This document shows, one piece after another, positions 39,711 through 62,474 of a stretch of 64,000 nt of DNA. A program made the position numbers and the translations under genes. The stretch covers positions 5,216,001-5,280,000 of the forward strand of contig OZ242311.1 in NCBI GenBank assembly GCA_965207885.1. Direction: 5' to 3'. Below the pieces are notes generated by a model that worked only from the letters and a program-made list of their open reading frames with translations, ran no database searches and had not been told where the DNA came from. Positions within the stretch are counted from its first letter, which is position 1, and the number at the start of each line of letters is the position of its first letter. The stretch comes from Candidatus Latescibacterota bacterium. Its GTDB lineage: Bacteria; Latescibacterota; UBA2968.

Positions 39711-39763
39711 AGCAGTTGGGCTTCTTGGCGGTCAATCCGCCTGACGTTGTAGCCCCAACGTCA
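39671..39763 (-). ncRNA. 3' part of predicted TnpB omegaRNA (reRNA) plus guide; 5' end undetermined
   Basis: Three consecutive hairpins (39742-39763, 39727-39741, 39700-39720) ending at TCAC; flanking 20 nt form the guide, as established for IS605 TnpB. Confidence 0.65.
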
Positions 39764-45621: not shown

Positions 45622-48072
45622 TCAGCACTTGAGGCGGGTCATCTGCGGGTCCCATAAGGGTTCGGAGGCGACCGTAGCTGGGAGAGACTCGCCAAAGTAT
45701 TCGATCTCCACATGGGTTCCCACGCGGGCGTGTTGCACCGGCAGATAGCCGTAGGCGATCCCGCGGTCAATGGAGTAGCCATAGTTGGCACTGGTGACAT
45801 AACCGCCTATGCGACCGTTAATCCAAATCGGCTCATTCCCCATGACCACCGAGTTTGGTGCGTCAAGAGTCAGGCAGCAGAGTTTTCGCGTCGAGCCTTG
45901 CACACGAGCCCTGACGAGAGCCGCCCGACCAATGAAGTCCCCCTTCTCCATCCGCACCGCAAAAGCAAGTCCGGCCTCCAGCGGATTGTACTCGGTGTGG
46001 AGTTCGTTGCCCCAAAGTCGATAGCCCTTTTCAAGCCTCAGAGAGTCAAAAGCCCCTAATCCAGCGGCAATCGCGCCGTGGGGCTGGCCAGCTCGCCAAA
46101 GTTCATCCCACAGGGCTTGCCCAAACTCGAACGGCGCGTAAAGTTCCCAGCCGAGTTCGCCGACATAGGAAATCCGCAAAGCAAGAACCGGAATCGCGCC
46201 GATGTCGAGATGCTGCGCGGTCAGGTAGGGAAATGCGCGGTCAGACACGTCGGCATCGGTAGTACGACGCAGTAGTTTCCGCGCCCTGGGACCCCAAACG
46301 CCTATACAACACCAGCGGCTGCTTTCGTCGGACAGAACAACTGAGCCATCTGTGGGCATGTACCGGCGAATCCACGCCTTGTCGCGCTCGGCGGTACTAC
46401 CCCCTGTGATGATGATGAATTGATCGTCGGCAAGGCGTGTTACAGTCAAATCGCACTGGATGCCCCCCTGTGGCGTAAGCATTGAGGTATAGGTAATACG
46501 GCCCTGAGGTTGGTCCACGCGATTGGCGGCCAAATAGTCCAAAAACGCCAGGGCCCCCGGCCCAGATACGCGAAATTTGGCAAATGGAGTCAAGTCAAAA
46601 AGCCCCACGCGCTCGCGGACAGCGCGGTGCTCTGTGCCGATGATCGGCGACCAAAAACGCGCCGCCCAGCCGCTGCGGGTGTGGCTGTGGTCGGTGGAGA
46701 CCGCGTTGGTCTCAAACCACCTGGGCCGTTCCCACCCCGCGCTTTCGACGAAGGCGGCTCCCAGTTCCCGATAGCGTTGGTGGTATGGGAGAAGGCGCAG
46801 GCCGCGCGGGGCGTCTATCGGCTGAGCCGGGTGAATGATGTCATAGACCTCGCGGTATTGCTGCGTACTGCGCTGGACGACGTAGGACGCGGTGCGCTGG
46901 TAGGGAAGAAAGCGGACGAGGTCGGCGTGGCGCAAATCCATGGTTGGCTGACCATTTGCCATCCATTCGGCAACCGCCTTGCCGACACCGCCAGCGTGCG
47001 TGATCCACACCGCCTCAGCCGACCAAAACCCCTTGACGTTAGGGGCTTCGCCGAGCACGGGCATTCCGTCTGGCGTAAACAGCAACAGGCCGTTGACCTT
47101 GCGGGTCAGCGCGGCTCGCCCAAGTGCCGGCAGCAATTCACCAGCCGAGATCATCCCCTCGCGGAAGGCCGCAGGCGACCAGGTACGCATGGAAGGCATC
47201 TCGGGTGCTTGCTCATGCGACTCGATATTCTCCGGCTCGACGCGCACAGGCTCGTGATCGTAAGAACCGATGATGTAGGCCTGGCCCTCCTGCCGACAGT
47301 AGATTGCCCGGTCCTGATGGCGGAGGATGGGATGCCGATGCTGCATGGTTTCCCCAGCGAGTTCGGGCAGAGGAGCTGTTTCGGCGTACAGGTGACAAAA
47401 AGGCACCAGCGGCAGGGAGACGCCGGCCATCTGACCGATCAGGCGCCCCCATATCCCAGCGGCGCAGACAATGGCCTCAGTGCGGATATGCCCGCAATCA
47501 GTGCGGACTCCAGACACGCGACCTCCAACCACGTCAATGCCAGTTACTGTGGTATTTCCATAAAACCTCGCGGCCCCACCAGCCTGGGCGTGATCGGCCA
47601 TAGCCTCGGCCAGTTGCCATGCCCGTGCAATGCCATCGCTGGGCGTGTACAGAGCACCGTAGATCGAGTCGGTCAACAGCGGGATTTTTTCGCGAACCTC
47701 GTCCGGCCCGAGCAAGCCGGTATCAATGCCCCAGGCCCGGCCAGCCCCGACCTTGCGCTTGAGGTCGTCGAACCGCTCGGGCGTCGTCGCGACTTCCAAT
47801 CCCCCGACCTCAAACCAAAATGGCTCGTCGCTGGATGAACTGAGGCGTCGATAGAGCTGGGTCGTCTCGCGTGCAAAAACAGACATCATGCGCGAGACAT
47901 TGACCTGGAAAACGAGGCCGGGGGCGTGGGAGGTCGAACCGCCGGTTTTGAACAGGGGACCCTTTTCCAGGACCACAATGTCCTTCCATCCCAGTTGCCC
48001 CAGATGATAGGCCACGCTGGTACCGGCGATACCGGCACCGATAATAACGACCCGTGCGTGATTTTGTATCAT
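45622..48072 (-). CDS. Dimethylglycine/sarcosine dehydrogenase-oxidase family (FAD + GcvT domains)
   Basis: IIGAGIAG, GSTSHAPG, FTPDG, AVWITH, GWERP, SYVGELGWE, LRLEKGY. Confidence 0.92.
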   Translation of the reverse strand: MIQNHARVVIIGAGIAGTSVAYHLGQLGWKDIVVLEKGPLFKTGGSTSHAPGLVFQVNVSRMMSVFARETTQLYRRLSSSSDEPFWFEVGGLEVATTPERFDDLKRKVGAGRAWGIDTGLLGPDEVREKIPLLTDSIYGALYTPSDGIARAWQLAEAMADHAQAGGAARFYGNTTVTGIDVVGGRVSGVRTDCGHIRTEAIVCAAGIWGRLIGQMAGVSLPLVPFCHLYAETAPLPELAGETMQHRHPILRHQDRAIYCRQEGQAYIIGSYDHEPVRVEPENIESHEQAPEMPSMRTWSPAAFREGMISAGELLPALGRAALTRKVNGLLLFTPDGMPVLGEAPNVKGFWSAEAVWITHAGGVGKAVAEWMANGQPTMDLRHADLVRFLPYQRTASYVVQRSTQQYREVYDIIHPAQPIDAPRGLRLLPYHQRYRELGAAFVESAGWERPRWFETNAVSTDHSHTRSGWAARFWSPIIGTEHRAVRERVGLFDLTPFAKFRVSGPGALAFLDYLAANRVDQPQGRITYTSMLTPQGGIQCDLTVTRLADDQFIIITGGSTAERDKAWIRRYMPTDGSVVLSDESSRWCCIGVWGPRARKLLRRTTDADVSDRAFPYLTAQHLDIGAIPVLALRISYVGELGWELYAPFEFGQALWDELWRAGQPHGAIAAGLGAFDSLRLEKGYRLWGNELHTEYNPLEAGLAFAVRMEKGDFIGRAALVRARVQGSTRKLCCLTLDAPNSVVMGNEPIWINGRIGGYVTSANYGYSIDRGIAYGYLPVQHARVGTHVEIEYFGESLPATVASEPLWDPQMTRLKC

Positions 48073-48107: not shown

Positions 48108-51100
48108 TTATGACGCACTTGTTTTCTCGACGAGAAACCGCACGGCCTGGCCCTCTATATCAACCGCATCGCCATCCACCGCATCTGCGCGAACCAATGT
48201 CGTACAGAGCGTCTCACCCATGATATAATCCCGAAACTGATCGAAAGCAAGAGCCAGAGAATTGCCATTATCCATATATGTCACTGCAATCCGATCTGAC
48301 ACATCCAGCCCCTTCTCCTTGCGGATATTTTGAATCACATGGACGATTTCGCGCGCCAGACCTTCGCGTACTAAATTTTCATCTCTGTGCAAATCCAGCG
48401 CCACCGTAATATCGCCTTCATTTGCCACAGCCATATCTTCTTTCTCTTCGCGCTGGATCAAAATATCATCCACCGTGAGATCTAAAGACTCCGCACCATC
48501 CAAATCCAATGACAGCGCGTGACCTTCGCGCAAAGATTGGATTTCCTCAAAGCCGAGACCCGCAATCTTCCCCGCGGCCACCTTCATATCTTTTCCCAAA
48601 CGCGGCCCCAGCACTCTGAAATTAGCTTTTGCAGAAAGCGTCACCACTGCCTCTTCATCGTCGCGAATATCCACGCGCTTCACATTTAACTCATCCGCGA
48701 CAATATCCTGTAACGCCCTGAGATCTTCGCGCACATCCTCCTGCATAGACACGAGAATCACCGCACGCAAAGGATGTCGGGTCCTGACATTGGCCTGACT
48801 GCGCAAGAACCTGCCCAACCCGACCGCTGTCCGCGTGTGCGCCATCTGCTGTTCCAGTCTCTCATCCAGATCGGCTTCGATCACATCGGGATAATCGCAC
48901 AAATGCACGGACTCCGGCATATCGCTCGCGCGCAAATTCCGGTAGATAGTCTCCGTGATAAACGGCGCGAAAGGCGCCAGTGCTTTAACCAGCGTCAAAA
49001 GCACGTGGTAGAGCGTCGCATAAGCAGACAATTTATCGCTATCATTATCGCTCTTCCAGAAACGCCGTCGGCTGCGCCGGATATACCAATTGGTCATATC
49101 GTCGATAAATGTTGCAAATCGCGTGGCCGCCGTCTGCAAATGACAGCGATCCAGCCCCTGTCGAATATCGCGCACCAGATGATTTAAACGCGCGCGAATC
49201 CAGCGGTCGAGCGGATGATCTGACCGATCCGACGTGGGCTGCCAGTTATCAACACGCGCATAAGTAACGAGAAAACTATACGCATTCCACAAAGGCAGCA
49301 GCACACTGCGCATCGTCTTTTGAACCCCCTGTTCTGAAAACGCGAGATCTTCGCCGCGCACCACAGGAGAAGACAACATATTGAGACGCAGCGCATCTGC
49401 ACCATACGTATTCATAATATGCATCGGATCGGGATAATTCTTCAAACGCTTGGACATTTTGCGCCCATCTTCCGCCAGGATCATACCATTGACCACCACA
49501 TTCTCGAACGGCGGACGGTCAAAAAGGGCAGCGCCGAGCACCACAAGCGTATAAAACCAGCCCCGCGTCTGATCCAATCCCTCAGCGATAAAATCCGCCG
49601 GGAAATGCGCGTCCAGCCACTCCTTGTTTTCAAACGGATAATGGCGTTGTGCATAGGGCATAGAACCGCTCTCAAACCAGCAATCGAGCACTTCGGGCAC
49701 GCGGGTCAATGGCCCCGTTTCACCCTCAATAATAACCGGATCCATAAAATGCTTGTGGATATCGTCAAACTTGCCACCCGTGCGTTCCTCCAGCTCGCCG
49801 ATAGAGCCAACACACACAGTCTCACCCGTCTCTTCATTTCGCCACAGGGGAAGCGGACAACCCCAATAGCGATTGCGGGAAATCGCCCAATCCCGCGCAT
49901 TTTCCAGCCAATTGCCAAAACGCCCCGCTTTGATGTGTTCGGGCACCCAGTGGATTTGCGCGTTTGCACGGAGCATATTGTCTTTAATCTTCTCAATATT
50001 GACAAACCAGGTCGAAATCGCCCTGTAAATAAGGGGCGACTCACACCGCCAGCAGTGGGGATAACTGTGATGATGTGTAGAGCGGTGAACGAGTTTGCCC
50101 TCTTCCTTTAAGCGATTCACAATATCGCTATCACAGTCCTTGACAAAACGCCCTTCGTAGTCATGTACCTCAGACGTAAAACGACATTCGGCATCAATCG
50201 GACAAACAGACGGAACGCCGTGAACACGACCGGCTTCGGCATCGTCTTCACCAAATCCAGGTGCCGTGTGGACAACACCTGTCCCTTCTTCAGTAGTCAC
50301 AAACTCGGCTGTAATAATGCGGAACGCCCCCTCCGCGCGCAGATCTTCAAAATAGGGAAAAAGCGGTTCGTATTGCAGACCGAGAAGTTCCTTCCCCTTT
50401 ACGGTCCTGACAATCTCGGGTCTTCCCGAGGGATAATAGGTACCCACACGCGCCTCAGCGAGAACGTACGTCACATCCTCATCTTTGACATACACATAAT
50501 CTATATCTTCATGCACAGTCATTGCCAGATTTGACGGCAGTGTCCAGGGCGTTGTCGTCCACGCCAGCAGATATGTATCCGATTCTTCTTTGAGTTTAAA
50601 CGCAACGGTAATAGCCGGGTCCTGCACCATCTCATAACCCTGATTGGCTTCAAAATTGGACAAAGGTGTTGCATCCCGGGGACAGTAAGGCAAAATTTTG
50701 TGTCCCTCGTAGATCAAGCCCTTGTCCCAAAGCTGTTTGAACACCCACCAGATAGACTCCATATAGTCGCGGTCCATCGTGCGATATCCATTTTCAAAAT
50801 CGACCCAGCGCCCGATTCGCTTGACGAATTGTCGCCACTCGGCAGTATAGCGCAAAACAATACCCCGACAGGCCTCATTGTATTCCGCAATCCCGTACTC
50901 TTCAATCTCACTTTTGCTATTCAAGCCCAGTTCCTGACTGAGCTCGTATTCTACGGGCAAACCGTGGCAGTCCCATCCAAAAACGCGATCTACGTATTTG
51001 CCATTCATCGTTTGATAGCGCGGGATCACATCTTTAATCGTCCCGGCCAGCAAGTGTCCGTAATGCGGCAAACCCGTCGCAAAAGGCGGCCCATCGTAAA

Positions 51101-51227
51101 AAACGTATTCGTCGTTATTCTTTCGGATCTCGAGCGATTTTTCAAATGCCCTGATCTCATCCCAAAAAGCGAGCACCTTTTCTTCCTCTTTGGGAAAATT
51201 CACATTTGTATCTACTTTCTCAAACAT
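48108..51227 (-). CDS. ileS: Isoleucine--tRNA ligase, type 2
   Basis: DGPPFATGLPHYGH, GWDCHGLP, ISRNRYWG, EGLDQTRGWFY, KMSKR; no C-terminal Zn finger. Confidence 0.97.
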   Translation of the reverse strand: MFEKVDTNVNFPKEEEKVLAFWDEIRAFEKSLEIRKNNDEYVFYDGPPFATGLPHYGHLLAGTIKDVIPRYQTMNGKYVDRVFGWDCHGLPVEYELSQELGLNSKSEIEEYGIAEYNEACRGIVLRYTAEWRQFVKRIGRWVDFENGYRTMDRDYMESIWWVFKQLWDKGLIYEGHKILPYCPRDATPLSNFEANQGYEMVQDPAITVAFKLKEESDTYLLAWTTTPWTLPSNLAMTVHEDIDYVYVKDEDVTYVLAEARVGTYYPSGRPEIVRTVKGKELLGLQYEPLFPYFEDLRAEGAFRIITAEFVTTEEGTGVVHTAPGFGEDDAEAGRVHGVPSVCPIDAECRFTSEVHDYEGRFVKDCDSDIVNRLKEEGKLVHRSTHHHSYPHCWRCESPLIYRAISTWFVNIEKIKDNMLRANAQIHWVPEHIKAGRFGNWLENARDWAISRNRYWGCPLPLWRNEETGETVCVGSIGELEERTGGKFDDIHKHFMDPVIIEGETGPLTRVPEVLDCWFESGSMPYAQRHYPFENKEWLDAHFPADFIAEGLDQTRGWFYTLVVLGAALFDRPPFENVVVNGMILAEDGRKMSKRLKNYPDPMHIMNTYGADALRLNMLSSPVVRGEDLAFSEQGVQKTMRSVLLPLWNAYSFLVTYARVDNWQPTSDRSDHPLDRWIRARLNHLVRDIRQGLDRCHLQTAATRFATFIDDMTNWYIRRSRRRFWKSDNDSDKLSAYATLYHVLLTLVKALAPFAPFITETIYRNLRASDMPESVHLCDYPDVIEADLDERLEQQMAHTRTAVGLGRFLRSQANVRTRHPLRAVILVSMQEDVREDLRALQDIVADELNVKRVDIRDDEEAVVTLSAKANFRVLGPRLGKDMKVAAGKIAGLGFEEIQSLREGHALSLDLDGAESLDLTVDDILIQREEKEDMAVANEGDITVALDLHRDENLVREGLAREIVHVIQNIRKEKGLDVSDRIAVTYMDNGNSLALAFDQFRDYIMGETLCTTLVRADAVDGDAVDIEGQAVRFLVEKTSAS

Positions 51228-51354
51228 TAAAAACTCCTATCAGGATCAGAATGGGCAGAGCCTGCACTGGAATGCCTCTATCCAGTGATGGAAGGATGAA
51301 CAGGATACCCCCAACCCCACCCATCTGGTTAAATGCCGCCCCAAATTGCTGCAC

Positions 51355-51387
51355 AAAAAAACCGCCACGGCAAACGCCCCTGGCGGT
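51355..51387 (-). terminator. Attenuator terminator in the ileS leader
   Basis: ACCGCCA...TGGCGGT stem followed by a U-tract, about 127 nt before the ileS start. Confidence 0.85.
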
Positions 51388-51410
51388 GTGTCATACAAAA
51401 AGTATATAGC

Positions 51411-51548
51411 TTAAGACAAACAACACCCCACAAGCGTCTCCGCGGCATATATACGTATAACCCCAATGGCACTGCCCGGTGTCAGATAACCTGTCACCTG
51501 GGCAGGACCCTTTCTCAGTTGTGGGGATGTTTGACGGGTTGTATTCAT
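51411..51548 (-). CDS. Putative ileS leader peptide (45 aa)
   Basis: MNTTRQTSPQLRKGPAQVTGYLTPGSAIGVIRIYAAETLVGCCLS*; all three Ile codons (ATT, ATA, ATA) within six codons; purine-rich RBS. Confidence 0.65.
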   Translation of the reverse strand: MNTTRQTSPQLRKGPAQVTGYLTPGSAIGVIRIYAAETLVGCCLS

Positions 51549-51578
51549 ATTTTCATCCTTTTCCTATCAGTGCGGTTA

Positions 51579-51607
51579 AAAATAGAAGTTTTGGTATTTT
51601 ATGTCAA
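51579..51607 (-). promoter_or_regulatory. Sigma70-type promoter of the ileS leader
   Basis: TTGACA-17 bp-TATTTT. Confidence 0.65.
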
Positions 51608-51615
51608 GCACTCAT

Positions 51616-52878
51616 CTACAAATCAGCAACTTCCTCTGAAACCCGTAGTCGCCGCCCCCTATCATCCTCCGATCTTGTAATTGCCCACGCGATCCAGCTC
51701 CATACACCCAACGCGCCCAATGCGACAAGCGGATATACTGATCCCGGTAACCGCCCAATATTGAAAACCCTGTAAGAAATGGTCCCCGCCAGTGCAATCA
51801 ATCCCGAAGTCATCCCCTTTGATGCGCGATAACCAAACGCATCGATCACTTCTTTTGCCCGGTACCTCGCATCAAACGAAAGCGGAATATAGAGCAACTC
51901 TTTTGCCGCACGAAACACCGAATAATCCAGCGTCTTAAACACCAGATAAGCCAACGCACCAGTAGTCAGAGTTGGATATACCAACAACACCCCACACGTT
52001 ATCAGATGAACCACCGGAATACCGAGATGGGCGGTTCGCAACGACACAAAATGCAGCAACAGGGGTGCAACACCAAACTGAAACACAAATGCACAGGCAT
52101 TCAACAACGCATAAAAATACCCCAAATAAGCGGTGCGTTCATCCTGTATCGGCAAAGCCGTCTCCACCAGCCCACTGAACCTCAAATCCAGCACCGCCGA
52201 CACCATCTGCGTCACAAAAATCAAGCCTGCGAGATAGCGCAAAGTTGGAATATCCCGAAACAAACCCAATGCCAGCTTGCCCCGCTTTTCTGGCTCCTGA
52301 ACTGGCACACCCCCCAGACCATAAGCCCACCACGCCAGAACGGCTGCTGGCAAAAGCGATAACCCTGCAAAAATCAACAGGTGTTCACTGCCTATCACCT
52401 TCGCCGTTTGCCCGACAATCAACCCCCCACAAATCGCACCCACCGACGCAATACCACAGATCGGACCATTGTACTTTCGCCCCTGATCATCTCGCAAGAC
52501 GCTATTGATAAACGACCAGTACTGTTCAATAATCAGCACAATATACGCTTCGCGCAGCACATATAACACCCCGACCGCCGGATGAAAACCAGATAAAATC
52601 CCCCCATAACACGCCAGAATACCCCCACCCGAAAGCACCGACGTCAAAAACAAAGTCTGCCGCGACCCAAACCGCGACAACAACACCCCATATCCCCAAA
52701 CCATACCGAACGTACCCAGAGGCGCCAGCGTCATAACAAAAGGCAAATTGTGCGCCCCATACGCCCCAATAAACAACGACGTGGATACACTCCGCACAAA
52801 CTCATATCCACACAACAAAAAGCCCGCTGCAAATCCGACCATCAACGCACCGGCAACAGGTCGCCTATCTATCGCCAT
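51616..52878 (-). CDS. NTT/TLC-like nucleotide carrier (ATP/ADP translocase family)
   Basis: About 12 TM; QYWSFIN, DYSVFRAAKELLYIPL, RYRAKEVID..GYR.SKG; ATG after GGAG. Confidence 0.75.
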   Translation of the reverse strand: MAIDRRPVAGALMVGFAAGFLLCGYEFVRSVSTSLFIGAYGAHNLPFVMTLAPLGTFGMVWGYGVLLSRFGSRQTLFLTSVLSGGGILACYGGILSGFHPAVGVLYVLREAYIVLIIEQYWSFINSVLRDDQGRKYNGPICGIASVGAICGGLIVGQTAKVIGSEHLLIFAGLSLLPAAVLAWWAYGLGGVPVQEPEKRGKLALGLFRDIPTLRYLAGLIFVTQMVSAVLDLRFSGLVETALPIQDERTAYLGYFYALLNACAFVFQFGVAPLLLHFVSLRTAHLGIPVVHLITCGVLLVYPTLTTGALAYLVFKTLDYSVFRAAKELLYIPLSFDARYRAKEVIDAFGYRASKGMTSGLIALAGTISYRVFNIGRLPGSVYPLVALGALGVWSWIAWAITRSEDDRGRRLRVSEEVADL

Positions 52879-52901
52879 TATTTTTCTCCGCACACTTTAT
52901 C

Positions 52902-55085
52902 TCAATACCACTTCCACCCTAAATCATAAACCAGACCGAGTGTCAGATTCCACCGATTGGCAATACCATCAACAGGCGTATTGCGAATTTTATTGACACG
53001 ATACAAAAAATTGTTCTGCTGTACAGACAAACTCAACTCGCCAACCAATGGAAAAGCGAGCGAATTATAATTCTCTAAAGACACCACATGCCGATCTGTA
53101 AACCCCGTAAAACTGCGCACCCGCGAGCGAAACTTTCCGCTGCCCAATGATCGCCGATAGTCCAAATACACTTCCGCTCCTATGTCATTTGCGTCAACCG
53201 CCAGATCGCGCTGTGCGCGGGCACCCAACCTGACGGTCAAGGTCCGCCCAAAACGCCGTTGAAAACCAGCACTACCGCGCAGAAGCCTGGGCCGCTGTCC
53301 CTCGACTTCGCGCAATGCGGTGCTATATCCCGCCAAAACAAAAGGATCAGCCACAGATTGCGTGCGATAGCGATATATCAAATCCGTTTCCAATTGATCT
53401 TCTGAACGCGTTAAATTGTCAAACGCCGTTCCAACTTGCCCAATCACCAGACTCTGATCAAGAGTAAGTAATTGTTTTCCCATATCTCTTACAACCATCA
53501 AATTCATCGCCGTATTCCAGGCCAGACTGGTCTTACCACTGAGAAATGACACGCGTTCTTTCTGCGCGCGATATGCAAGTGTTGTACCATCGATATAGTT
53601 GCGATTAAACGCGCCCTTGACAGTCCAATTCATGTGCCAAATTCCATTTGATCTCAGAGTGGCAAACTCGCGGGGAGCCAGCACAACCTGCGTATCTCGC
53701 AGTGCATAAACGACCATTTGGCGGAGCGGCATACCCGTAAACACAACATCTTTCCCTTTGCGAAACTCGCCATATCCATCGCCGCCATTCGCCAAAAATT
53801 CGACGACTACAACGCGATACAATTCGTTCTTTTGAATGGGACGTCCATTAATTGTATTTTTTCCCAAACCAGAAAAAATCAACCGCATTTCTTCTCGTGG
53901 CGCATTTTGGCTGCGTCGGAAAATGCTCAAAAGTTGCGCACCCGTCAGTCTCATCTTCACCAGACGGTCATCAAAAGGAATCAAATGATCGATATGGCCC
54001 ACTTTGAGCACGCGATTTGAAGGCACAAGCCCCAATCCTCCCCGATTGATAATACCCACCTCGCTATCCAAATATCGGCGCATCAGCCCCGTGACAGTAC
54101 GCCCTTGATCCCGATATGTCTTACCCGCAATCCGACCTATCCTCTGATTCGCGACCAGTTCGTATCTTTGCCTGAGATCGTTGACCAGCCGCTCTATCTC
54201 TGGGTCACGCTCCACAGAGCGACTCACTGGAATCTGCTCTGCCGAAACATCCACCACCTTCATATTGCCCTGAGTATCCGGCGAAAGGTGTAGCTCAACG
54301 CGACCAACAGACATCCCATTGCTCGGCGTGACGACCAGTGCCAGACCATTCACCAGACGGATCAGACTCGGCACCTGTAAACCGCGATCCAGATCGCTAA
54401 ATCCACCAGCGACAATCAGATCAACGCCCTCAACCTCGCGGGCAAAATTCAATGCACTCGTTTCATCCATATGCGCCAATACAATAACGCACTGCGCCTT
54501 TTTCTCGCGCAACACAACTGCCAATGAATCCACAACTTTGACGGGATCGCCAACCCTCAGACCCGACAGATGCCCCGGGTCAATTTTTTGTGCGACTTCT
54601 GGACCCAACACGCCGATAATCCCCACCTGAACACCGCCAGCCTTTACCATGGTATAACCCGGCAAAGGAGGCATTCCGCCATCTCTTCGCACGAGATTCG
54701 CCGCCAGCATTGGAAAATCAATTTCTTTTTGTCGCGCCTCCAAAATACCCCACCCCAAAGACAAATCGTGATTTCCCACCACCATAGCGGCATAATTCGC
54801 GCGATTCATCGCCGCACACATCGTTGCGCCCGCATCAAACCGCGACATCGCATTGGGTCCCAGAGCATCCCCCGCATCCAGAACAATCGCTGGCTCAGAA
54901 GTCTGCAATTTGCGAATCAACCCCACGCGCGCAGCCATCCCCCCGCGATCTCCTCGCCGCGTCAGTTGCCCAGACACATCGTTGCTGTGAATCACCGTAA
55001 GCCGTATATCTTCTGCACCCAAAGAAGAAGCGAACAAAAAACAAGCGAGGACGCAATAGATTCCCCACTGCTGCACCACGCTCAT
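52902..55085 (-). CDS. Degenerate 5'-nucleotidase (metallophosphoesterase + 5'-NT C domain) fused to a C-terminal beta-barrel
   Basis: HSND, DAGD, GNHD, AANL, INRGG, FLANGGDGY, then about 240 aa of amphipathic strands ending LGWKWY. Confidence 0.8.
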   Translation of the reverse strand: MSVVQQWGIYCVLACFLFASSLGAEDIRLTVIHSNDVSGQLTRRGDRGGMAARVGLIRKLQTSEPAIVLDAGDALGPNAMSRFDAGATMCAAMNRANYAAMVVGNHDLSLGWGILEARQKEIDFPMLAANLVRRDGGMPPLPGYTMVKAGGVQVGIIGVLGPEVAQKIDPGHLSGLRVGDPVKVVDSLAVVLREKKAQCVIVLAHMDETSALNFAREVEGVDLIVAGGFSDLDRGLQVPSLIRLVNGLALVVTPSNGMSVGRVELHLSPDTQGNMKVVDVSAEQIPVSRSVERDPEIERLVNDLRQRYELVANQRIGRIAGKTYRDQGRTVTGLMRRYLDSEVGIINRGGLGLVPSNRVLKVGHIDHLIPFDDRLVKMRLTGAQLLSIFRRSQNAPREEMRLIFSGLGKNTINGRPIQKNELYRVVVVEFLANGGDGYGEFRKGKDVVFTGMPLRQMVVYALRDTQVVLAPREFATLRSNGIWHMNWTVKGAFNRNYIDGTTLAYRAQKERVSFLSGKTSLAWNTAMNLMVVRDMGKQLLTLDQSLVIGQVGTAFDNLTRSEDQLETDLIYRYRTQSVADPFVLAGYSTALREVEGQRPRLLRGSAGFQRRFGRTLTVRLGARAQRDLAVDANDIGAEVYLDYRRSLGSGKFRSRVRSFTGFTDRHVVSLENYNSLAFPLVGELSLSVQQNNFLYRVNKIRNTPVDGIANRWNLTLGLVYDLGWKWY

Positions 55086-55168
55086 GCGTCCTCCTTTGCC
55101 AGGGACTTCAGTGCCAACTCATCCAACGCGATGTCTTTAACCCAGCCGGTATTGATATCGTAAGCCAT
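55082..55168 (-). pseudogene. 28-codon ORF or 3' gene remnant coupled to the nucleotidase gene
   Basis: MAYDINTGWVKDIALDELALKSLAKEDA*; ATGA overlap; carries the AGGAGG RBS of the next gene. Confidence 0.35.
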
Positions 55169-55198
55169 CGAAAGTGGAATGCGAATTACGTGATCATG

Positions 55199-55229
55199 CG
55201 ACATAATGTCTCATAGCGACATTATGCCG
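55199..55229. promoter_or_regulatory. Pair of enhancer-like palindromes
   Basis: CGACATAATGTC and CGACATTATGCCG 18 bp apart; same motif as 56787-56831. Confidence 0.5.
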
Positions 55230-55273
55230 TGAATAACGAATAAGACGATGTGCAAACGGACAATAATGATGGT

Positions 55274-56686
55274 TCAGATTTTCTGAGGAGTAACGCCGTA
55301 CTCTGTGATTTTCCGCTGTAGCGTTCGCACACTGATACCCAAAATTTCGGCACTCTGAGTGCGGTTGCCGCCGGTATGCCTGAGCGTATCCAAAATCATC
55401 TTCCTTTCTGCTTCGTCCAGCCTTCTCGGCACGAAATCCGATTTCTGAGATTCTGCATCTTCGGGGGAAGCGATTCTATCATCAATTGGCAAAATGGACT
55501 CGATATCTTTCTCTCCAATTGCCCTGTTTCCGTCTGCGGCATAGATCACCAGACGCTCCACCATGTTTTTTAGTTCCCTGACATTTCCCGGCCAGTCGTA
55601 TTCAGCCATACGGTCGAGACACCGATCCGCTATTTCGACGGGAGCGATCCCGTTCTGATCTGCAAAACGCTCGGCAAAAACCCGCACCAGCAGAGGGATA
55701 TCCGACTTCCGGGCTCTAAGGGGAGGAACGGGAATATGAATGACGTTGAGGCGGTAGTACAGGTCTTCCCTGAATCGTCCCATTTTGACAGCCGTCGTCA
55801 GATTCATATTCGAGGCCGCGACGACGCGCACGTTGATATCGATCAATTGGCTCGCTCCTACATGTCGGACTTTCTGTTCCTCAAGCACGCGCAATAATTT
55901 CGTCTGCACCTGCATATCTAAGTCCCCTATTTCGTCGAGGAAGAGGGTCCCCCCCTGAGCTGCTTCAAAAAGCCCCTGTCGGTCCTGTGTCGCCCCGGTA
56001 AAAGAACCTTTCTCATGTCCAAATAACTCACTATCAGCCAATCCCACCGGCAGAGCCGAGCAGTTGATGGCAACAAACGGCCCATTGCTCACGGCACTGA
56101 GTGAGTGAATAGCACTTGCTACCAACTCTTTTCCAGTACCGCTTTCGCCCGTAATCAAAACCGTCGATTTGAACGGTGCCGCACGGCGGATCTGATTAAA
56201 CACCACCTCCATCGCATTAGAGGTCCCCAGCAATTCGCCGAATTCCGTCCTCGCCTCCACCCGTTTATCTGAAACGTGGTCAAATACCCGCTTGCGTTCA
56301 AGCGCACGATGTACGGCAGTCAGCAGATCGTTGGCATCAACCGGTTTGACCACATAATCAACGGCACCCAGCCGCATGGCCTGTACCGCTTGTTTTACAG
56401 TCGCATAAGAGGTGAAGATAACTACCGGCAGCGGTGGCGTCAGTGTGATAGCGATGTTCAGCAACTGCATACCACCCGACATGTTGATATCTATGATCGC
56501 CACATCCAGAGACTGCGTTTTGAGCAACTGCTCCGCGATGGTGCCATCAGTTGCTCCGACAACTTCATCACAACCGTTCTCTCGCAGGATTTTGGTCACA
56601 TTTGCCAGATTTTTCGGGTTGCTATCGGCAACAAACACGCTGCCAGGAAAAGGCGTATAAGCGATTGGACTGGAAGATGCCTGCAT
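55274..56686 (-). CDS. Sigma54-dependent response regulator (REC-AAA+-Fis HTH, NtrC family)
   Basis: GESGTGKE, SELFGHEKGSFTGA, FLDEIG, FREDLYYRL, WPGNVREL, HTH. Confidence 0.95.
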   Translation of the reverse strand: MQASSSPIAYTPFPGSVFVADSNPKNLANVTKILRENGCDEVVGATDGTIAEQLLKTQSLDVAIIDINMSGGMQLLNIAITLTPPLPVVIFTSYATVKQAVQAMRLGAVDYVVKPVDANDLLTAVHRALERKRVFDHVSDKRVEARTEFGELLGTSNAMEVVFNQIRRAAPFKSTVLITGESGTGKELVASAIHSLSAVSNGPFVAINCSALPVGLADSELFGHEKGSFTGATQDRQGLFEAAQGGTLFLDEIGDLDMQVQTKLLRVLEEQKVRHVGASQLIDINVRVVAASNMNLTTAVKMGRFREDLYYRLNVIHIPVPPLRARKSDIPLLVRVFAERFADQNGIAPVEIADRCLDRMAEYDWPGNVRELKNMVERLVIYAADGNRAIGEKDIESILPIDDRIASPEDAESQKSDFVPRRLDEAERKMILDTLRHTGGNRTQSAEILGISVRTLQRKITEYGVTPQKI

Positions 56687-56786
56687 CGGTGGTATAAACC
56701 TCTATCAAAATTGAAATTATTTAAGCGAAATCAAATAAAGTTACATCATTACTATGTGGAATACAACCTGTTCATGTTATGCACTA

Positions 56787-56838
56787 CGTCAAAATGACTG
56801 GTAACGACAAAATGTCGTAGTCACAATGTCGTAGTCAC
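56787..56838. promoter_or_regulatory. Candidate upstream activator sequences
   Basis: GTCAAAATGAC, CGACAAAATGTCG, GTCACAATGTCG, 80-130 bp upstream of the sigma54 site; includes a 14-bp tandem duplication. Confidence 0.6.
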
Positions 56839-56914
56839 GACTCCGATTGTCAAGCTCCGGTCCCGATATCGTACAACACGATGTAATAATCACCAAATTG
56901 GACGACTCTAAGAG

Positions 56915-56930
56915 TGGCACGGGATTTGCT
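56915..56930 (+). promoter_or_regulatory. Sigma54 (-24/-12) promoter
   Basis: TGGCAC-GGGAT-TTGCT, consensus TGGCAC-N5-TTGCW. Confidence 0.85.
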
Positions 56931-56985
56931 CTTATTTTGCCTGACAGCAAAAAAAGTATCATTCAATATGGAGAAAGGAATTGCC

Positions 56986-58605
56986 ATGGAAATAGCAAAT
57001 ATGTTTGCAGGTTGGGAATGGTGGGAGCAATACTTCTCACCCTTTGCACATATCATCTTACCTTTTACTATCCTCGTGTTCGGGTGGATAGTGGCTCATC
57101 TGGTGTCCTGGGTCGTCCGTCGAGTTCTGCTCAAAACGCAAGTAGATGACAGATTGCTCGAACTGGTCATGGGCCGCGACGCCGCCGCGAACATCCACGT
57201 TGAACGCTGGATCAGCAAGGCAGTGTTCTATCTGGTGATGATCTTCGTGCTCGTTGCCTTCTTTCAGATACTCGACCTGACGACAGTGACCGTCCCCCTC
57301 AACGCGATGCTGAGCCAAATTTTGATCTACTTACCCAAGCTGTTGGGCGCTGCCGCGCTGCTTTTGATTGCCTGGCTCGTGGGTAGCCTGTTGCGAAGAA
57401 TCGTAACGGCCGTGCTATCACGAGCAAATATCGAGCAACGTTTGGCTGAACCAGCCGGGCTTGAGACCGCAACAGAGAGCGGACTGCCGCAGACAATCGG
57501 CAACGTTGTGTACTGGCTCACCTTTCTCGTGCTACTCCCGGCCATCCTGGATGTCCTGGGCTTGCAGGGATTGCTACAACCAGTACAGCAGATGATGGCC
57601 AAAATTATCGGCTTTCTGCCCAACCTGTTTGCCGCCGCCCTCATCATGCTAATCGGCTGGCTCGGTGCGCGCATCGTCCAGCAGATAATCACCAACGTCC
57701 TCGACGCCACCGGGATAAACAATTTTGGTCGTCGCGTGGGACTGGCAACTGGACTGGGTATCGAAAGCCTTTCGGGGCTTGCCGGTACATTATCTTATGC
57801 GATCATCTTGATATTCGCAGCGATCACCGCCCTCGAATCGCTAAACTTCGAGGCTATTTCTAATCCCGCCAGTTCCATGCTGGAGGGAGTATTGACCGCA
57901 GTGCCGTCTATCCTGGTCGCTGGAGGCATCCTCCTCATCGGGTATCTGGTGGCTCGATTAGTATCCCGCATAGTTGATGATGTGCTCAGGCAAATGGGCT
58001 TCAACACGCTGCTACAACGCCTCGGAATAGCGGAAGTGACCGTTGCTGAGGAACAATCGCCTTCCATCGCGGAGGCAACCTCTGAGGGGGACCGCCCGTC
58101 TTCAACAATGGAGACAACCTTTGCGTTGGATCGTCCACCTTCGCAACTGGCGGGATATGTCGCCATGGTGGCGGTCCTCCTCTTCTCGGCCATTGAGGCA
58201 ACCGCGCAACTCGGATTTCAAGAACTGGCAAGCATGTTAGTGATGCTGACGCTGCTATTTGGCAAGGTTATCCTGGGCGTGGTGATCTTCGGTTTCGGGC
58301 TTTACCTCGCGTCCGTGTTCGGGCGCATCGCGTCCAGAAAAGGAGGTGCCTATGGCAGCATACTCAGTGCAATCGTCCGGATTGCAATCGTGGCACTGTC
58401 TCTCTTTATGGCGCTCGGGCAAATGGGCATCGCAAACGAGATTATTACCCTCGCCTTTGGACTCATCCTCGGTTCAGCAGCAATCGCCGCAGCGATCGCG
58501 TTCGGCATGGGAGGGCGTGACCTGGCGAAAAAACAGATGGAGCAATGGACACAGAGTCTCGAAGAAATAAATAACAATAGCCCTTCGGACTCAAAGGAAG
58601 AGTAA
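56986..58605 (+). CDS. CmpX-like TM-helix-repeat protein (mechanosensitive-channel associated)
   Basis: Repeated YLPKLLGA / FLPNLFAA...IGW units; terminal AIAFGMGGRDLA; ATG after GAAAGGA. Confidence 0.85.
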   Translation: MEIANMFAGWEWWEQYFSPFAHIILPFTILVFGWIVAHLVSWVVRRVLLKTQVDDRLLELVMGRDAAANIHVERWISKAVFYLVMIFVLVAFFQILDLTTVTVPLNAMLSQILIYLPKLLGAAALLLIAWLVGSLLRRIVTAVLSRANIEQRLAEPAGLETATESGLPQTIGNVVYWLTFLVLLPAILDVLGLQGLLQPVQQMMAKIIGFLPNLFAAALIMLIGWLGARIVQQIITNVLDATGINNFGRRVGLATGLGIESLSGLAGTLSYAIILIFAAITALESLNFEAISNPASSMLEGVLTAVPSILVAGGILLIGYLVARLVSRIVDDVLRQMGFNTLLQRLGIAEVTVAEEQSPSIAEATSEGDRPSSTMETTFALDRPPSQLAGYVAMVAVLLFSAIEATAQLGFQELASMLVMLTLLFGKVILGVVIFGFGLYLASVFGRIASRKGGAYGSILSAIVRIAIVALSLFMALGQMGIANEIITLAFGLILGSAAIAAAIAFGMGGRDLAKKQMEQWTQSLEEINNNSPSDSKEE

Positions 58606-58669
58606 CACTATTCTCGATATTTGGATTGGTGTTTGGAATATCTGTATAACACTGTGATCGCTAAGGAAT

Positions 58670-58705
58670 AGAAGCCCTGGGCGTTGAATAATGTCTGGGG
58701 CTTCT
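58670..58705. terminator. Hairpin downstream of the CmpX-like gene
   Basis: AGAAGCCCTGGGCGTT...AATGTCTGGGGCTTCT inverted repeat; no strong U-tract. Confidence 0.5.
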
Positions 58706-58902
58706 GTGTACAAATGCTTGACAGATAGACTCATAGCAGATTATTTAGGATTTGACAGCTATAGTAAAACCGGAAATTTTTGGCAGCACTCTGACTTTGA
58801 CAGCACCGCGAGATGGCCTGGTGATCGGACGGATCATATCGCCCCTGGTGCATCGCGGCGATGCGGTTTTGCATCTGGCGACGGAGATCGCTACACACTA
58901 AG

Positions 58903-59018
58903 TGGTCTGTCAAAAAAATTCGCTGATATATTTTTTTGATAGGCTGGATTGCGGCTTACACCATGCCGCAATGACAACCGTCGCTCGTCACGCCTGCATG
59001 TTTTAAGCAGGCGTCCAG
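58903..59018. repeat. REP-like palindromic element, copy B
   Basis: CTGGATTGCGG...CCGCAATGAC plus inverted unit GTCACGCCTGC...GCAGGCGTCCAG. Confidence 0.75.
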
Positions 59019-59029
59019 TGGATTAATTT

Positions 59030-61600
59030 ATGATTGATTATTTAAAAAAAATAAAAAATCGAACATACGAAATTCTCGAAGTCGCTGGTCCTTGCGACTT
59101 GTTCAGCCGGCGAATCAACTGGGCAATACTCGTTCTTGTGCTCTTTAATACGGGTGTTCAATGCCTCGATATCTGGTGGCCGAAAACCCTTGTAGAGTAT
59201 CTGCAGCGGTTCGAGTGGTGGCCGGGTAACGACATTCTACATTTTTATTTTCTCTATTATTCTTACTGGTTCGAATGGCTTTTTATTGGTTTGCTAATTG
59301 TCGAATATCTGGCGCGTATGTGGTGCGTCCATGCGGCTGGGGGAACACACCTTGCCACGCGGTTGCGTTTTGGACTTCATCTACTACAGATCGCCGATCT
59401 CATCGTCATTCTGAATTTTTTCTTTTCCATCGTATTATTCGATCTGCGGTTTCTGCGCCTGTTGCGCTGCCCGCGATTGATCGATCTCATTCGTTTCACC
59501 TATAACTACGCCGATCCTCCAGAGGGGGTTACAGGCTACAGGGCAGCCATTGGAAACATCCGACGCCAACTATCTGAGGTGCGCCAGGCAGTGCGTGTAG
59601 AGCAGGAGAAAGACATACAATCCGTCCGCCAGCACACGGAATCTACAGTTAGACAGTTGCGAAGGATACAACAAGATGTATCGATTCAACTGCGCCGTCG
59701 TCCTCAGGATCTGAAAGAGTCACTTCCTCAGACACGCGAAACCGTGCAAGACATTTTCGACTCGCTTCGTGCGGATTTGAGTAATCCCAATAATCTGTCC
59801 GAGGTGGAGGTATTAAATCAGGTCGCATTCCAAAATTCCTCCTCTGTTTTTGACAATCTGCCGGAAAAGGTCAGTTATGTACACGATCTGAATTGGAAAA
59901 ATCGAATAAGCTACCGGGTCGTCCCCCTGCGTCAGATTGGCTCTGCCCATTTCAGCGGTCTGGAAAACAAGGCCGATACTGCGTATCAGCAATTTGAAAA
60001 AATCCGCATTGAAGGATCGCTCGAAGGCGTGGACAGCGTGTTCGGTACGTTCAGGTACGCGATCAACACAGTTGAGAATGGCCTGTCGCAGGGAGATGAT
60101 GTACTGTCGCCCGATGTTCAGATGGGGTTCAATCGCGCGATCAATCGATTGCGGGACCTCAACGACTATACCCGAATGGCATGGGAGTCGCTGCTTTGGG
60201 AACTCGAATGCGAGCACCAGGAACGGTTGGAACTGATCGGTCAGGACGCTGACCGTTATGGTCGGATTGCGTTCTATCTTGCAAAACTCGGACGATTCGG
60301 GCGTCAGATTACTTCGACCGCCTTGAGAGCGTGCAGACAGGGATTGCTGCGCCTGTTGTCATTTCTCCGGGCACAGGCAGTCGTGCTATTCAATGCCGCT
60401 TCTGGCATTATCAAACCCGTGTTGCGCCGCCTGGATTTGATAGCACCGGTCGAACGCGAAGTCCGTCTGGCACTCGACAAAGCCAATCTGGAGTCGATCA
60501 AACATCTCGGGCTGCCGGAAGATTACATGGCTCATTTCGCTTTCGATTCTTTGAATGACGAGGCATTATTTATCGGATTTGACGAAGAGTTGGCTACTAT
60601 TGAACAGGCGATTCAGCGCTGGGAAGATGGTCTTACGTCTTCCTTCATCTTATTCGGACAACGGGGTGCGGGCAAAACGACATTGTTGAATATTGCTGTC
60701 TCGCGATTATTCGACGACGCTTCGGTCGTAACCCTGTCCGCAATTGAGTGCAAGATGACGACCGCGCCTGAACTGGTGTCCTATCTGGCAAATGTTCTTG
60801 AGATAGAAGGTGCGGCGAGCTTTGACGACCTATCTATAAAATTGTTGCAAGGACCACGACGCGCTGTGATACTCGAAGGGTGCCACAACCTTTTTTTCAA
60901 ATGTATCGGTGGTCTGGATGCAATCCAGCACCTGCTCTGGCTCATCGCGCGTACCAACCACCACATACTCTGGGGCATTTGTCTCGACCAGCATGCACGC
61001 GGCTATCTCGGTCTATGGCTCTCCCTGAATCGCCTATTTCACTTTGAGATCGGGATTCAGAGTTGGCTACCAGCAGAGTTGCAAATGCTTCTGATGCAGC
61101 GTCACAATCAGAGTGGCTATCGCCTGCGTTACGCGATAGATAAGGAATTGGAAAAAACCGTGCGTCGGCGCGTGCATCGCTGGCGCCGGCCAGAAGAGCC
61201 GGCTGTTCAGGATGTGCTGTCTCAGATCTATTTCAAGCGTCTGGCAGAGATTAGCCAGGAAAACATATTTGTCGCCCTTCTGTATTGGTTGCGGTCGCTT
61301 GAGCTTTCGGAAAGCGACCTCCTTATGGTTAATCCCGTCAGTGAGATTGACCTTGGAATTGTGCGCAATTTCTCGCTTGATCAGGCATTTATTCTGATCG
61401 CGGTATTGCAGCACGACAATCTTACCGCCGCCGAACTATCATCAATACTCGATAAAGACCTCATCCAGACCAGACTGGAACTCGAGATTCTGTGGAACGA
61501 CAATATTCTCGAATTCGATCAGGAATCGACGCGTTTCCGCATTAATCCCATTGGTTTGAAAGCCGTAGAAGAAATGCTGGAAGGGCGCGGTCTCTTGTAA
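59030..61600 (+). CDS. Voltage-sensor-like (S1-S4) domain fused to a helical region, P-loop NTPase and winged-helix
   Basis: VEYLAR (S2), IADL (S3), RFLRLLRCPR (S4); no pore or TVGYG; GQRGAGKT; AVILEG. Confidence 0.8.
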   Translation: MIDYLKKIKNRTYEILEVAGPCDLFSRRINWAILVLVLFNTGVQCLDIWWPKTLVEYLQRFEWWPGNDILHFYFLYYSYWFEWLFIGLLIVEYLARMWCVHAAGGTHLATRLRFGLHLLQIADLIVILNFFFSIVLFDLRFLRLLRCPRLIDLIRFTYNYADPPEGVTGYRAAIGNIRRQLSEVRQAVRVEQEKDIQSVRQHTESTVRQLRRIQQDVSIQLRRRPQDLKESLPQTRETVQDIFDSLRADLSNPNNLSEVEVLNQVAFQNSSSVFDNLPEKVSYVHDLNWKNRISYRVVPLRQIGSAHFSGLENKADTAYQQFEKIRIEGSLEGVDSVFGTFRYAINTVENGLSQGDDVLSPDVQMGFNRAINRLRDLNDYTRMAWESLLWELECEHQERLELIGQDADRYGRIAFYLAKLGRFGRQITSTALRACRQGLLRLLSFLRAQAVVLFNAASGIIKPVLRRLDLIAPVEREVRLALDKANLESIKHLGLPEDYMAHFAFDSLNDEALFIGFDEELATIEQAIQRWEDGLTSSFILFGQRGAGKTTLLNIAVSRLFDDASVVTLSAIECKMTTAPELVSYLANVLEIEGAASFDDLSIKLLQGPRRAVILEGCHNLFFKCIGGLDAIQHLLWLIARTNHHILWGICLDQHARGYLGLWLSLNRLFHFEIGIQSWLPAELQMLLMQRHNQSGYRLRYAIDKELEKTVRRRVHRWRRPEEPAVQDVLSQIYFKRLAEISQENIFVALLYWLRSLELSESDLLMVNPVSEIDLGIVRNFSLDQAFILIAVLQHDNLTAAELSSILDKDLIQTRLELEILWNDNILEFDQESTRFRINPIGLKAVEEMLEGRGLL

Positions 61601-61623
61601 TCTAAAACAGGAATCAGAGCATA

Positions 61624-62460
61624 ATGGATACTTCACCTCTCGAACAACTCACGGGAAGCGGTGGCTTACACATTAACGCCGCCAAAATATTGTCTGTCCT
61701 CCTGGTGATTGCGATAGCTTATGCGGTGACAACAATTATTCGTCTCGCGTTGGATTTCGGAGCCAACCGATTTCCTTCACATCGCTTGCTATTCAAGCGC
61801 GTTCAGCCACTGTTGCGTATCGGTATTTACGGGGTTGCGATTTATTATTCTATCGTTATTATTGCACCCGAACAAAATACCCTGCTCGCCCTGCTGGGAT
61901 CAATCGCTCTGGCACTTGGACTTGCCGCGAAAGATCTACTCAATGATCTTATTGGCGGTATTGTCGTGCTGTTTGACCGATCTTTTCAAATCGGCGATCG
62001 CGTGACAGTAGGCTCTTATTACGGCGAAGTCGTGTCGATTGGTCTGCGTAGCACAAAGCTACAGACGATCGATGATTCACTCGTCACCGTGCCGAATTCC
62101 ACATTGCTGACCTCTGGCGTATCGAATACCAATGCCGGGAACCTCGACTGCCAGGTTGTTGTAGATATATACCTGCCAGCACGGGCTGATTTGAAGGAGA
62201 TTGAAGATGTGGCTCACGAGGCTGTGTTGACATCCATGCTCGCATATCTTAAAAAACCAGTGGTGGTCAATGTTAAGGACAAATTTGAAGAGACGCACCT
62301 GACACATCTCGTGGTGAAAGCGTACGTATTTGACACGCGCTATGAGAACAGTTTCGCCACTGATCTTACCAGTCGTATTAAAAAGGAATTGTCCAGACGC
62401 AAGCTCATACCGTCTGATGTGCGTTTTACGGATGTTGTTGATGAGCCAGCGCATGATTGA
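61624..62460 (+). CDS. MscS-family small mechanosensitive channel
   Basis: ALGLAAKD, FQIGDRV, GEVVSIGLRST, VTVPNS. Confidence 0.92.
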   Translation: MDTSPLEQLTGSGGLHINAAKILSVLLVIAIAYAVTTIIRLALDFGANRFPSHRLLFKRVQPLLRIGIYGVAIYYSIVIIAPEQNTLLALLGSIALALGLAAKDLLNDLIGGIVVLFDRSFQIGDRVTVGSYYGEVVSIGLRSTKLQTIDDSLVTVPNSTLLTSGVSNTNAGNLDCQVVVDIYLPARADLKEIEDVAHEAVLTSMLAYLKKPVVVNVKDKFEETHLTHLVVKAYVFDTRYENSFATDLTSRIKKELSRRKLIPSDVRFTDVVDEPAHD

Positions 62461-62474
62461 AAAGGTGGCCTGCA

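Follow-up and report, generated by a model that had tools for sequence, protein, structure and literature searches.

What is a 5′-nucleotidase-like domain that lacks its metal-binding histidines doing in front of an outer-membrane β-barrel, and why does the fusion stand directly before a carrier of the NTT family? The question is raised by a 64,000-nucleotide stretch of a Candidatus Latescibacterota bacterium (contig OZ242311.1, positions 5,216,001 to 5,280,000; hereafter the window), taken from a source genome of 6.23 Mb on a single contig, in which a 727-aa pseudo-5′-nucleotidase/β-barrel fusion, here called NT-barrel, precedes a carrier of 425 aa. NTT carriers are the textbook tools of energy parasites. 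A sequence-only reading of the locus had proposed that NT-barrel is a nucleotide-binding receptor on an outer-membrane pore that feeds the carrier. Our analysis leads to a different arrangement: judged by its residues, NT-barrel is a catalytically disabled member of the UshA/CD73 fold, and we tentatively favor, at somewhat less than even confidence, a periplasmic domain that binds its ligand without hydrolysis, tethered to a pore whose inner-membrane partners vary among lineages, the partner here being an NTT-type carrier. The features concerned are the following (positions are those of the window).

52902 to 55085, minus strand: NT-barrel, an open reading frame (ORF) with Pfam matches, an AlphaFold2 (AF2) model at a predicted local distance difference test (pLDDT) score of 84, and 35 full-length relatives at 40-91% identity.
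55014 to 55085, minus strand: signal peptide, aa 1-24, with a likely signal peptidase I site between ...SLG-A and ED, proposed from the sequence and the alignment A1.
54204 to 55013, minus strand: metallophosphatase-like N domain, aa 25-294, with an eroded di-metal site, from profile alignments to 3ivd, 5h7w and 2z1a and from column counts.
53676 to 54203, minus strand: linker helix and 5′-nucleotidase C-terminal (substrate-binding) domain, aa 295-470, with Pfam 5_nucleotid_C at aa 330-438.
52905 to 53642, minus strand: 12-strand outer-membrane β-barrel, aa 482-727, ending in WKWY, from a barrel-only model, VIA-align and DUF481 matches.
51616 to 52893, minus strand: short TLC/NTT-family carrier, 425 aa, from Pfam TLC, a profile comparison with 9j3j and hydropathy.

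Both genes belong to a set of four co-directional genes on the minus strand, which comprises a sigma-54 regulator, the 727-aa ORF, the 425-aa ORF and the isoleucyl-tRNA synthetase gene (IleRS, 48108-51227). The gene placement given by the sequence-only reading agrees with the ORFs at 52902-55085 and 51616-52893, and so does its gap of 23 bp, which applies when the carrier starts at ATG 52878, the likely start; counted from GTG 52893, the gap after the NT-barrel stop is 8 bp. The signal region of NT-barrel in A1 consists of a hydrophobic stretch followed by a conserved [W/C/G]-A-[E/D]-D, and the protein is likely secreted through the signal peptide at aa 1-24, with cleavage at a signal peptidase I site.

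The AF2 model, built with 19 relatives, has a two-domain nucleotidase fold at aa 27-470 followed by 12 strands at aa 482-726, and structure prediction, which had been named as a check, bears out both halves of the fusion. The closest Foldseek matches of the model are E. coli c4898, UshA, the Thermus 5′-nucleotidase and CD73, with E values down to 1.7e-32 (3ivd) and template-modeling scores of 0.65-0.73 against nucleotidase entries when normalized to the target. A profile search against the nucleotidases of the PDB gave E values down to 2.3e-41, and superposition yielded a root-mean-square deviation (rmsd) of 5.6-6.0 with closed-state CD73 and of 9.4-11.5 with open-state entries. Among family models, Pfam 5_nucleotid_C matches at 2e-12 and Metallophos at 2.4e-4, barely above its cut-off, while the scores against the NCBIfam nucleotidase models lie far under every cut-off.

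The translation reads HSNDVSG (the histidine of DxH is S38), LDAGDALG, VGNHDL and AGGFSD in the place of GHxH; the metal-site histidines are replaced by S38, G228 and S230, and the position of the catalytic aspartate is S109. Columns were counted in 30 family members and in 15 canonical (ordinary) nucleotidases, and each column given here holds the canonical residue in 15/15 of the latter. The DxH histidine and the first and second GHxH histidines occur in 0/30, 0/30 and 0/30 family members, so that the losses read as DVS and GFSD by the sequence-only reading extend to every member. The GD (bridging) aspartate D73 is kept in 20/30 and is Asn or Ser in 10/30, and the aspartate after GNH (canonical GNHEFD), Ser109 in the window, is kept in 17/30. 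D36 (30/30), N105 (27/30), H106 (25/30) and H205 (26/30) are retained in most members. The DAGD and GNH motifs, which had been described as kept, are intact in the window and incompletely conserved in the family. Three of the seven metal ligands are missing from every family member examined, and the full histidine set was found in 0/31 further barrel-carrying representatives of 50%-identity clusters; a loss so uniform (0/30 and 0/31) is taken to be ancestral to the fusion family.

The substrate-binding domain has been treated differently. Stacking position 371 is aromatic in 30/30 members and position 430 in 24/30 (F371 and F430 in the window), N347 is kept in 23/30, and the GGDG aspartate, D436, is invariant in A1; the GGIR arginine column holds Arg in 17/30 members and Gly352 in the window. 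The roles that we assume for the named pocket and metal residues, and for the column of the catalytic Asp-His dyad, are those of the UshA and CD73 literature. NT-barrel has the two-domain fold of UshA, CD73 and NadN, with the base-stacking aromatics mostly kept and the GGDG aspartate retained, but differs from them in the family-wide absence of the DxH and both GHxH histidines and in its added C-terminal barrel; the window copy further lacks the catalytic aspartate and the arginine of GGIR. This residue pattern looks like binding retained without di-metal chemistry.

An alternative is that the domain is still an enzyme, with a reduced or different metal site or another phospho-substrate, which would make NT-barrel a periplasmic hydrolase tethered to the outer membrane. 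We regard this as improbable. D36, N105, H106 and H205 are kept far beyond what neutral decay would leave, and locus L018 has a separate Metallophos gene that overlaps the barrel gene at its end. However, three metal ligands are absent throughout, the window copy carries Ser109, the bridging aspartate is substituted in a third of the members counted, and the family models respond marginally (Metallophos) or far under their cut-offs (NCBIfam). The only other 5_nucleotid_C protein of the genome (L003 550-1971, at ~3.01 Mb, 473 aa) keeps DTH and reads GNGE for GNHE and GDTH for GHxH. It was considered as an active-nucleotidase contrast and rejected, its motifs being altered too, and the genome may consequently have no canonical UshA-type enzyme.

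The C-terminal part of NT-barrel was modeled separately (pLDDT 84.5, predicted template-modeling score 0.77) and forms 12 strands, which, with the terminal ...YDLGWKWY, agrees with the earlier description of a barrel with an aromatic C-terminal end. The best VIA-align match is the nucleoside channel Tsx, with a Z score of 16.1 and an rmsd of 3.2 over 202 aa, which is 2.3 Z above NanC; the next matches are NanC (13.8), KdgM (13.7), EstA (13.2) and NalP (12.7), and the Vibrio GalP porin, OMPLA and PcoB are also found (all Z 12.7-13.8). Foldseek matches of the barrel include OmpG, EstA and COG4313. Pfam DUF481 (PF04338) matches 5/10 family barrels, with a best E value of 3.1e-6, the window barrel not being among them, and the distant fusion P0325 at 2.2e-4. 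Tsx, NanC and KdgM likewise have 12 strands and a similar size; in contrast to these and to DUF481/YdiY, the barrel type of NT-barrel occurs almost only behind a nucleotidase-like domain. A search with its profile among 1.84 billion proteins yields just 102 cluster representatives. The strong matches are nearly all proteins of 700-800 aa or fragments, and 5_nucleotid_C is present in 22/27 of the long bacterial-looking matches; full-length fusions account for roughly 40 representatives of 50%-identity clusters, from Gemmatimonadota, Myxococcota, Thermodesulfobacteriota and other phyla. A barrel type almost confined to nucleotidase-like fusions indicates that the fusion is old and stable. The ESM Atlas holds similar 700-900-aa proteins in other phyla, which serve as leads only, as they come without genomic context.

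The orientation of the domain follows from the loops. Outer-membrane barrels usually have long outer loops and short periplasmic turns. In the barrel of NT-barrel, the connections 1-2, 3-4, 5-6 and so on total 59 residues and the alternate set 18, and the AF2 models predict no helix before strand 1 or between aa 463 and strand 1. This loop-length pattern and the lack of a pore-threading helix would put the nucleotidase-like domain at the periplasmic side, and not outside the cell as a surface receptor would require. Autotransporters with an enzyme passenger (EstA, 3kvn) share the general layout of an N-terminal enzyme fold and a C-terminal 12-strand barrel, but NT-barrel has no predicted long linker helix and the Pfam Autotransporter model matches 1/10 members, at only 0.0076; we infer from these two points that its domain stays in the periplasm. 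The first loop (aa 499-520, 22 residues with a short helix) is better conserved than any other part of the protein. Outer loops are not usually conserved in this way, and the loop may act as a plug or as a binding element.

These same features bear on a second alternative, in which nothing is transported: the barrel would be a mere membrane anchor, and the periplasmic domain would serve as a scaffold for, or bind, a partner that is not a nucleotide, for example another protein or a polymer of the envelope. The strands carry many conserved polar and charged residues and a helix in the conserved first loop could fill the lumen; DUF481, to which Pfam relates the barrel, has no known function; and the neighboring genes vary widely among lineages, all of which would suit an anchor. 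Yet those neighbors are mostly inner-membrane transporters and channels and not envelope-building genes, the nucleoside-pocket aromatics are retained, and so conserved a barrel is rarely needed for a simple anchor. An anchoring role is accordingly judged distinctly unlikely.

The next gene was said to resemble ATP/ADP translocases, and it proves, on profile evidence, to be a true but remote NTT homologue. Pfam TLC (PF03219) matches at an E value of 2.2e-8 and 33.8 bits (cut-off 21; 23.5 bits in the genome search), over aa 295-362 only (68 residues), and TIGR00769, the NTP/NDP exchanger model, scores 20.6 bits with a cut-off of 387.2. A carrier profile (A3, 22 relatives) aligns with the solved chloroplast NTT1 structure 9j3j at an E value of 1.6e-10 over aa 108-405 and with a second, bacterial NTT1-type carrier, 9j3n, at 2.4e-9; hydropathy shows ~10-12 hydrophobic segments. 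The carrier shares the KxxDYSxF...KExxYIPL block with the solved NTT1 structures but is ~70-170 residues shorter. It is the single TLC-family gene of the window genome. In the available part of Major, Embley and Williams (2017, PMC5381601), NTT homologues of unknown function are reported from many free-living bacteria, including one Latescibacteria sequence, NTT-HEAT-cNBD fusions are described in free-living bacteria, and no substrate is given as known for any member of the short subfamily or of NTT-HEAT. Our literature search found no paper on the NTT1 structures or the 9j3j substrate site, and a preprint (10.64898/2026.06.21.733656) mentions PF03219 as a search term only.

The association of the two genes was surveyed in 168 Latescibacterota genomes of 49 genera, with thresholds of E ≤ 1e-50 for the barrel protein and E ≤ 1e-60 for the short carrier. 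The barrel protein is present in 49 genomes (14/49 genera) and the short carrier in 30 genomes (11 genera). In the genus of the window, the genes are adjacent in 14/14 genomes that have both; 3 genomes of that genus have neither and 1 has only a divergent barrel protein. A second phylum, that of genome G003, carries the barrel protein in 11/33 genomes. In two of these, G173 and G202, the next gene on the same strand, ~70-90 bp away, encodes a TLC-HEAT-cNMP_binding protein of 1107 or 1116 aa. This partner has only 22-24% identity to the window carrier and belongs to a different NTT subfamily; it has the NTT-HEAT-cNBD architecture described in the portion of Major et al. at hand (PMC5381601). 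The barrel proteins of G173 and G202 share 61% identity and have ~34% identity to that of the window, and they too are dead by motif (HSNDVYG, AGN, TNMD). With ~5 TLC-family genes per genome in G173 and G202, a chance neighbor is unlikely, at an estimated ~0.1% per flank. That different NTT subfamilies were recruited on two occasions speaks for a functional connection that is real but facultative, and such a link of the barrel family to NTT-family carriers is plausible. In the second-phylum group, at loci L197-L202, a weaker relative of the barrel protein (E ~1e-60) adjoins an FAA_hydrolase gene; the scanned loci also encode, close by, a TonB-type receptor (CarboxypepD_reg/OMP_b-brl_4) and an LRR/Big_2 protein of 1300-1400 aa.

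The mechanism that we tentatively favor combines these elements. The nucleotidase-like domain would hang on the periplasmic face of the barrel and would most likely bind a nucleoside-phosphate-type ligand without hydrolysis, through F371/F430, D436, D36, N105, H106 and H205. Barrel and domain together may make up the part of a transport path that lies at the outer membrane, the domain being a binding unit tethered to a small pore. The module appears to team with NTT-family carriers in the genus of the window and in the second phylum; elsewhere it sits beside other transporters or channels, or alone. Given the repeated teaming with NTT carriers, passage of a nucleotide or nucleoside, or its hand-over to the carrier, is the most likely role at this locus.

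A considerable body of observations weighs against this reading. Ligand binding in place of hydrolysis is deduced from residues only, and the likeness of the barrel to Tsx is at the level of the fold only, homology having been rejected by an hhalign comparison of A2 with E. coli K-12 Tsx that found no relation (probability 0.15%, E value 0.39). Both genes occur together in 17 of the 168 genomes, with 32 genomes holding only the barrel protein and 13 only the carrier. Adjacency is limited to the one genus of 49; a distance of 4.2 kb separates the two genes in G069, and G070 and G110 carry both without linkage. A PF03219 match is absent from 19/49 barrel-protein genomes, including the single-contig genomes G092, G059, G133, G139 and G148, and a TLC relative was found within the fetched flanks at 1/25 barrel loci outside the genus (23 from Latescibacterota, and L018 and L019 from the second phylum). 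Even within the genus, 4/14 pairs (L007, L010, L015, L021) are split by a ~700-bp cassette, and two complete genomes have large barrel-gene deletions, in-frame or out-of-frame (L015, 6001-7292; L021, 6001-6381), aa 337-620 being missing in one and only aa 632-727 being left in the other, while the carrier and IleRS are intact. Three genomes of the genus have Castor/Pollux-type and MscS genes directly before the carrier instead. The carrier family extends far beyond the barrel family, with at least 616 matches in several phyla, Planctomycetes, Hydrogenedentes, Poribacteria and Armatimonadetes being among the source names, and the neighbors of its members elsewhere show no nucleotide theme. Finally, the genome has PurH and PyrF homologues, so that nucleotide import is not needed.

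The cassette itself (L007 8182-8911) contains two opposite-strand ORFs of 83 and 95 aa which, read from their sequences, look like a HigB toxin and a HigA antitoxin. A metagenome scan, of which 80 loci were kept, returned 3-4 fusions (L022, L023, L025, perhaps L028), the rest being ordinary nucleotidases; no TLC match was seen on these contigs, which are too short to judge pairing.

These counts decide most clearly on the strict form of the proposal, a surface nucleotide receptor on a pore with an obligate feed to an ATP/ADP-type translocase along a dedicated two-gene route. It accounts for the loss of histidines with a retained pocket, the Tsx-like barrel, the tight gene spacing and the recurring NTT-family neighbors. 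Co-conservation of the two genes, by which the sequence-only reading had proposed to judge itself, nevertheless fails across Latescibacterota, where the pairing with an NTT-family gene is a matter of one genus; what survives of the claim is the independent recurrence in a second phylum with another NTT subfamily. The domain is moreover predicted to be periplasmic, and the carrier, at 20.6 bits for an exchanger model that calls for 387, belongs to a subfamily described as uncharacterized in the part of the source available (PMC5381601). We consider the strict form very improbable. A looser version speaks of a two-membrane path in free-living and sponge-associated bacteria with full nucleotide biosynthesis: a dead nucleotidase under a Tsx-like pore would capture intact periplasmic nucleotides, shield them from hydrolysis and pass them to NTT carriers, short or NTT-HEAT-cNMP. 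This is doubtful, though it deserves to be kept in view.

A further explanation comes from the other side of the locus, where a regulator and a set of channel genes lie.

55274 to 56686, minus strand: sigma-54-dependent response regulator (receiver, AAA+, Fis helix-turn-helix), upstream of NT-barrel on the same strand, with Pfam Sigma54_activat (6.7e-69), Response_reg and HTH_8.
56915 to 56930, plus strand: TGGCACGGGATTTGCT, identical to the sigma-54 promoter consensus and placed where the divergent channel operon begins, from a consensus scan of the window.
56914 to 63998, plus strand: divergent ion-channel operon, from Pfam, with the four members below.
56914 to 58605, plus strand: MscK-like transmembrane (TM)-repeat protein.
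59030 to 61600, plus strand: Ion_trans/AAA_16 protein, 856 aa.
61624 to 62460, plus strand: MscS.
62457 to the window end, plus strand: Castor/Pollux-RCK channel.

In this explanation the link to the carrier is incidental, and the barrel protein is an outer-membrane pore or regulator of ion or solute flux in a neighborhood of ion or osmotic homeostasis genes, here under sigma-54 control, with the dead nucleotidase as its gate or sensor. The neighbors of distant barrel loci include a 750-aa AA_permease-family protein, an Ion_trans_2/TrkA_N K+ channel, MscS, Castor/Pollux-type channels and MFS_1 (L014), and a tblastn search of ~6 kb flanks found channel or AA_permease genes at 10/24 distant barrel loci and at 0/20 control loci of the same genomes. 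The Ion_trans/AAA, MscS and Castor set recurs in the window and in genus g24 (L148, L149, L151). Of the 3 MscS genes of the genome, 2 lie in the channel island, as does its only Castor_Poll_mid gene, all within 10 kb. The genera with channel neighbors (g10, g24, g25) are mostly those without TLC-family genes. A scan of the window with what we take to be the sigma-54 consensus gave 43 matches, and the site adjoining the sigma-54 regulator is the sole one with 0 mismatches. Against this, 14/24 distant loci have no channel gene nearby, and the 10 that do come from 4 genera in 3 families, so that these related genomes are not independent samples; nothing connects the nucleotidase fold to ion flux, and the second, independent NTT-family adjacency is left unexplained. 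We therefore hold this explanation to be unlikely, if still a serious one, and retain as our preferred reading the pore with a tethered, ligand-binding periplasmic domain.

The sequence TGGCACGGGATTTGCT overlaps the listed GTG start of the ORF at 56914, whose true start is probably further downstream. A candidate sigma-54 promoter for the barrel gene (55101-55116) was rejected as unconvincing, having 2 mismatches and no GC at -12 and overlapping the ribosome-binding site. Over positions 51000-57000, a sigma-70 scan found promoter-like sites at chance level, and a terminator scan gave about twice the shuffle mean, with no terminator between the barrel and carrier genes. Contigs from 4 RNA libraries labeled as sponge or coral metagenome cover both genes with 88-99% likeness. 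Two of them bridge the barrel-carrier junction (X18 record 9, X20 record 22), which leaves a single transcript unproven, DNA carry-over being possible; in two others the match stops at 52899, and what follows corresponds, on visual comparison, to the first part of the toxin-antitoxin-like spacer in L007.

Several other genes were noted around these loci. A further MscS gene lies just past the window end, after the Castor/Pollux-RCK channel. A stand-alone T2SSE-like ATPase gene occurs in the flanks of 8/24 distant loci (L148, L149, L151, L014, L154, L156, L158, L159) and abuts the barrel gene in L014, L148, L149 and L151, with HTH_17 in L148; genes for secretion or pili were otherwise not seen in the vicinity. 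In the window, a GCV_T gene (44240-45544, plus strand) and a gene for an 816-aa DAO-FAO_M-GCV_T fusion of the dimethylglycine/sarcosine dehydrogenase type (45622-48072, minus strand) could belong to betaine-type osmolyte breakdown, beside the channel island. An IS605-type OrfB/TnpB gene (39732-40859, minus strand; Cas12f1-like TNB, OrfB_IS605, HTH_OrfB_IS605) lies in a stretch of low G+C content, 0.43-0.49 over 24-44 kb (0.51 at 36-38 kb) compared with 0.51-0.61 elsewhere.

A literature search, judged from listings and abstracts, found no description of a nucleotidase fused to a C-terminal outer-membrane β-barrel. The pseudo-nucleotidase/barrel family is undescribed and built from known parts, and is not a new kind of system. 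Most of the NTT family resides in free-living bacteria and is without a known role, as stated in the available part of Major et al. (2017, PMC5381601). An outer-membrane protein with a dead nucleotidase, placed twice independently before NTT genes, offers a testable handle on the NTT subfamilies of non-parasitic bacteria, and it would illustrate clearly how an enzyme fold can be converted into a binding module that sits on a membrane barrel. Should the proximity to the carrier prove incidental, the family would still represent, in Latescibacterota and neighboring phyla, a class of outer-membrane proteins without a previous description, and its recurrent placement near channels would call for a separate explanation. 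If the two-membrane path is true, it would provide the first physiological context for large uncharacterized NTT subfamilies of non-parasitic bacteria.

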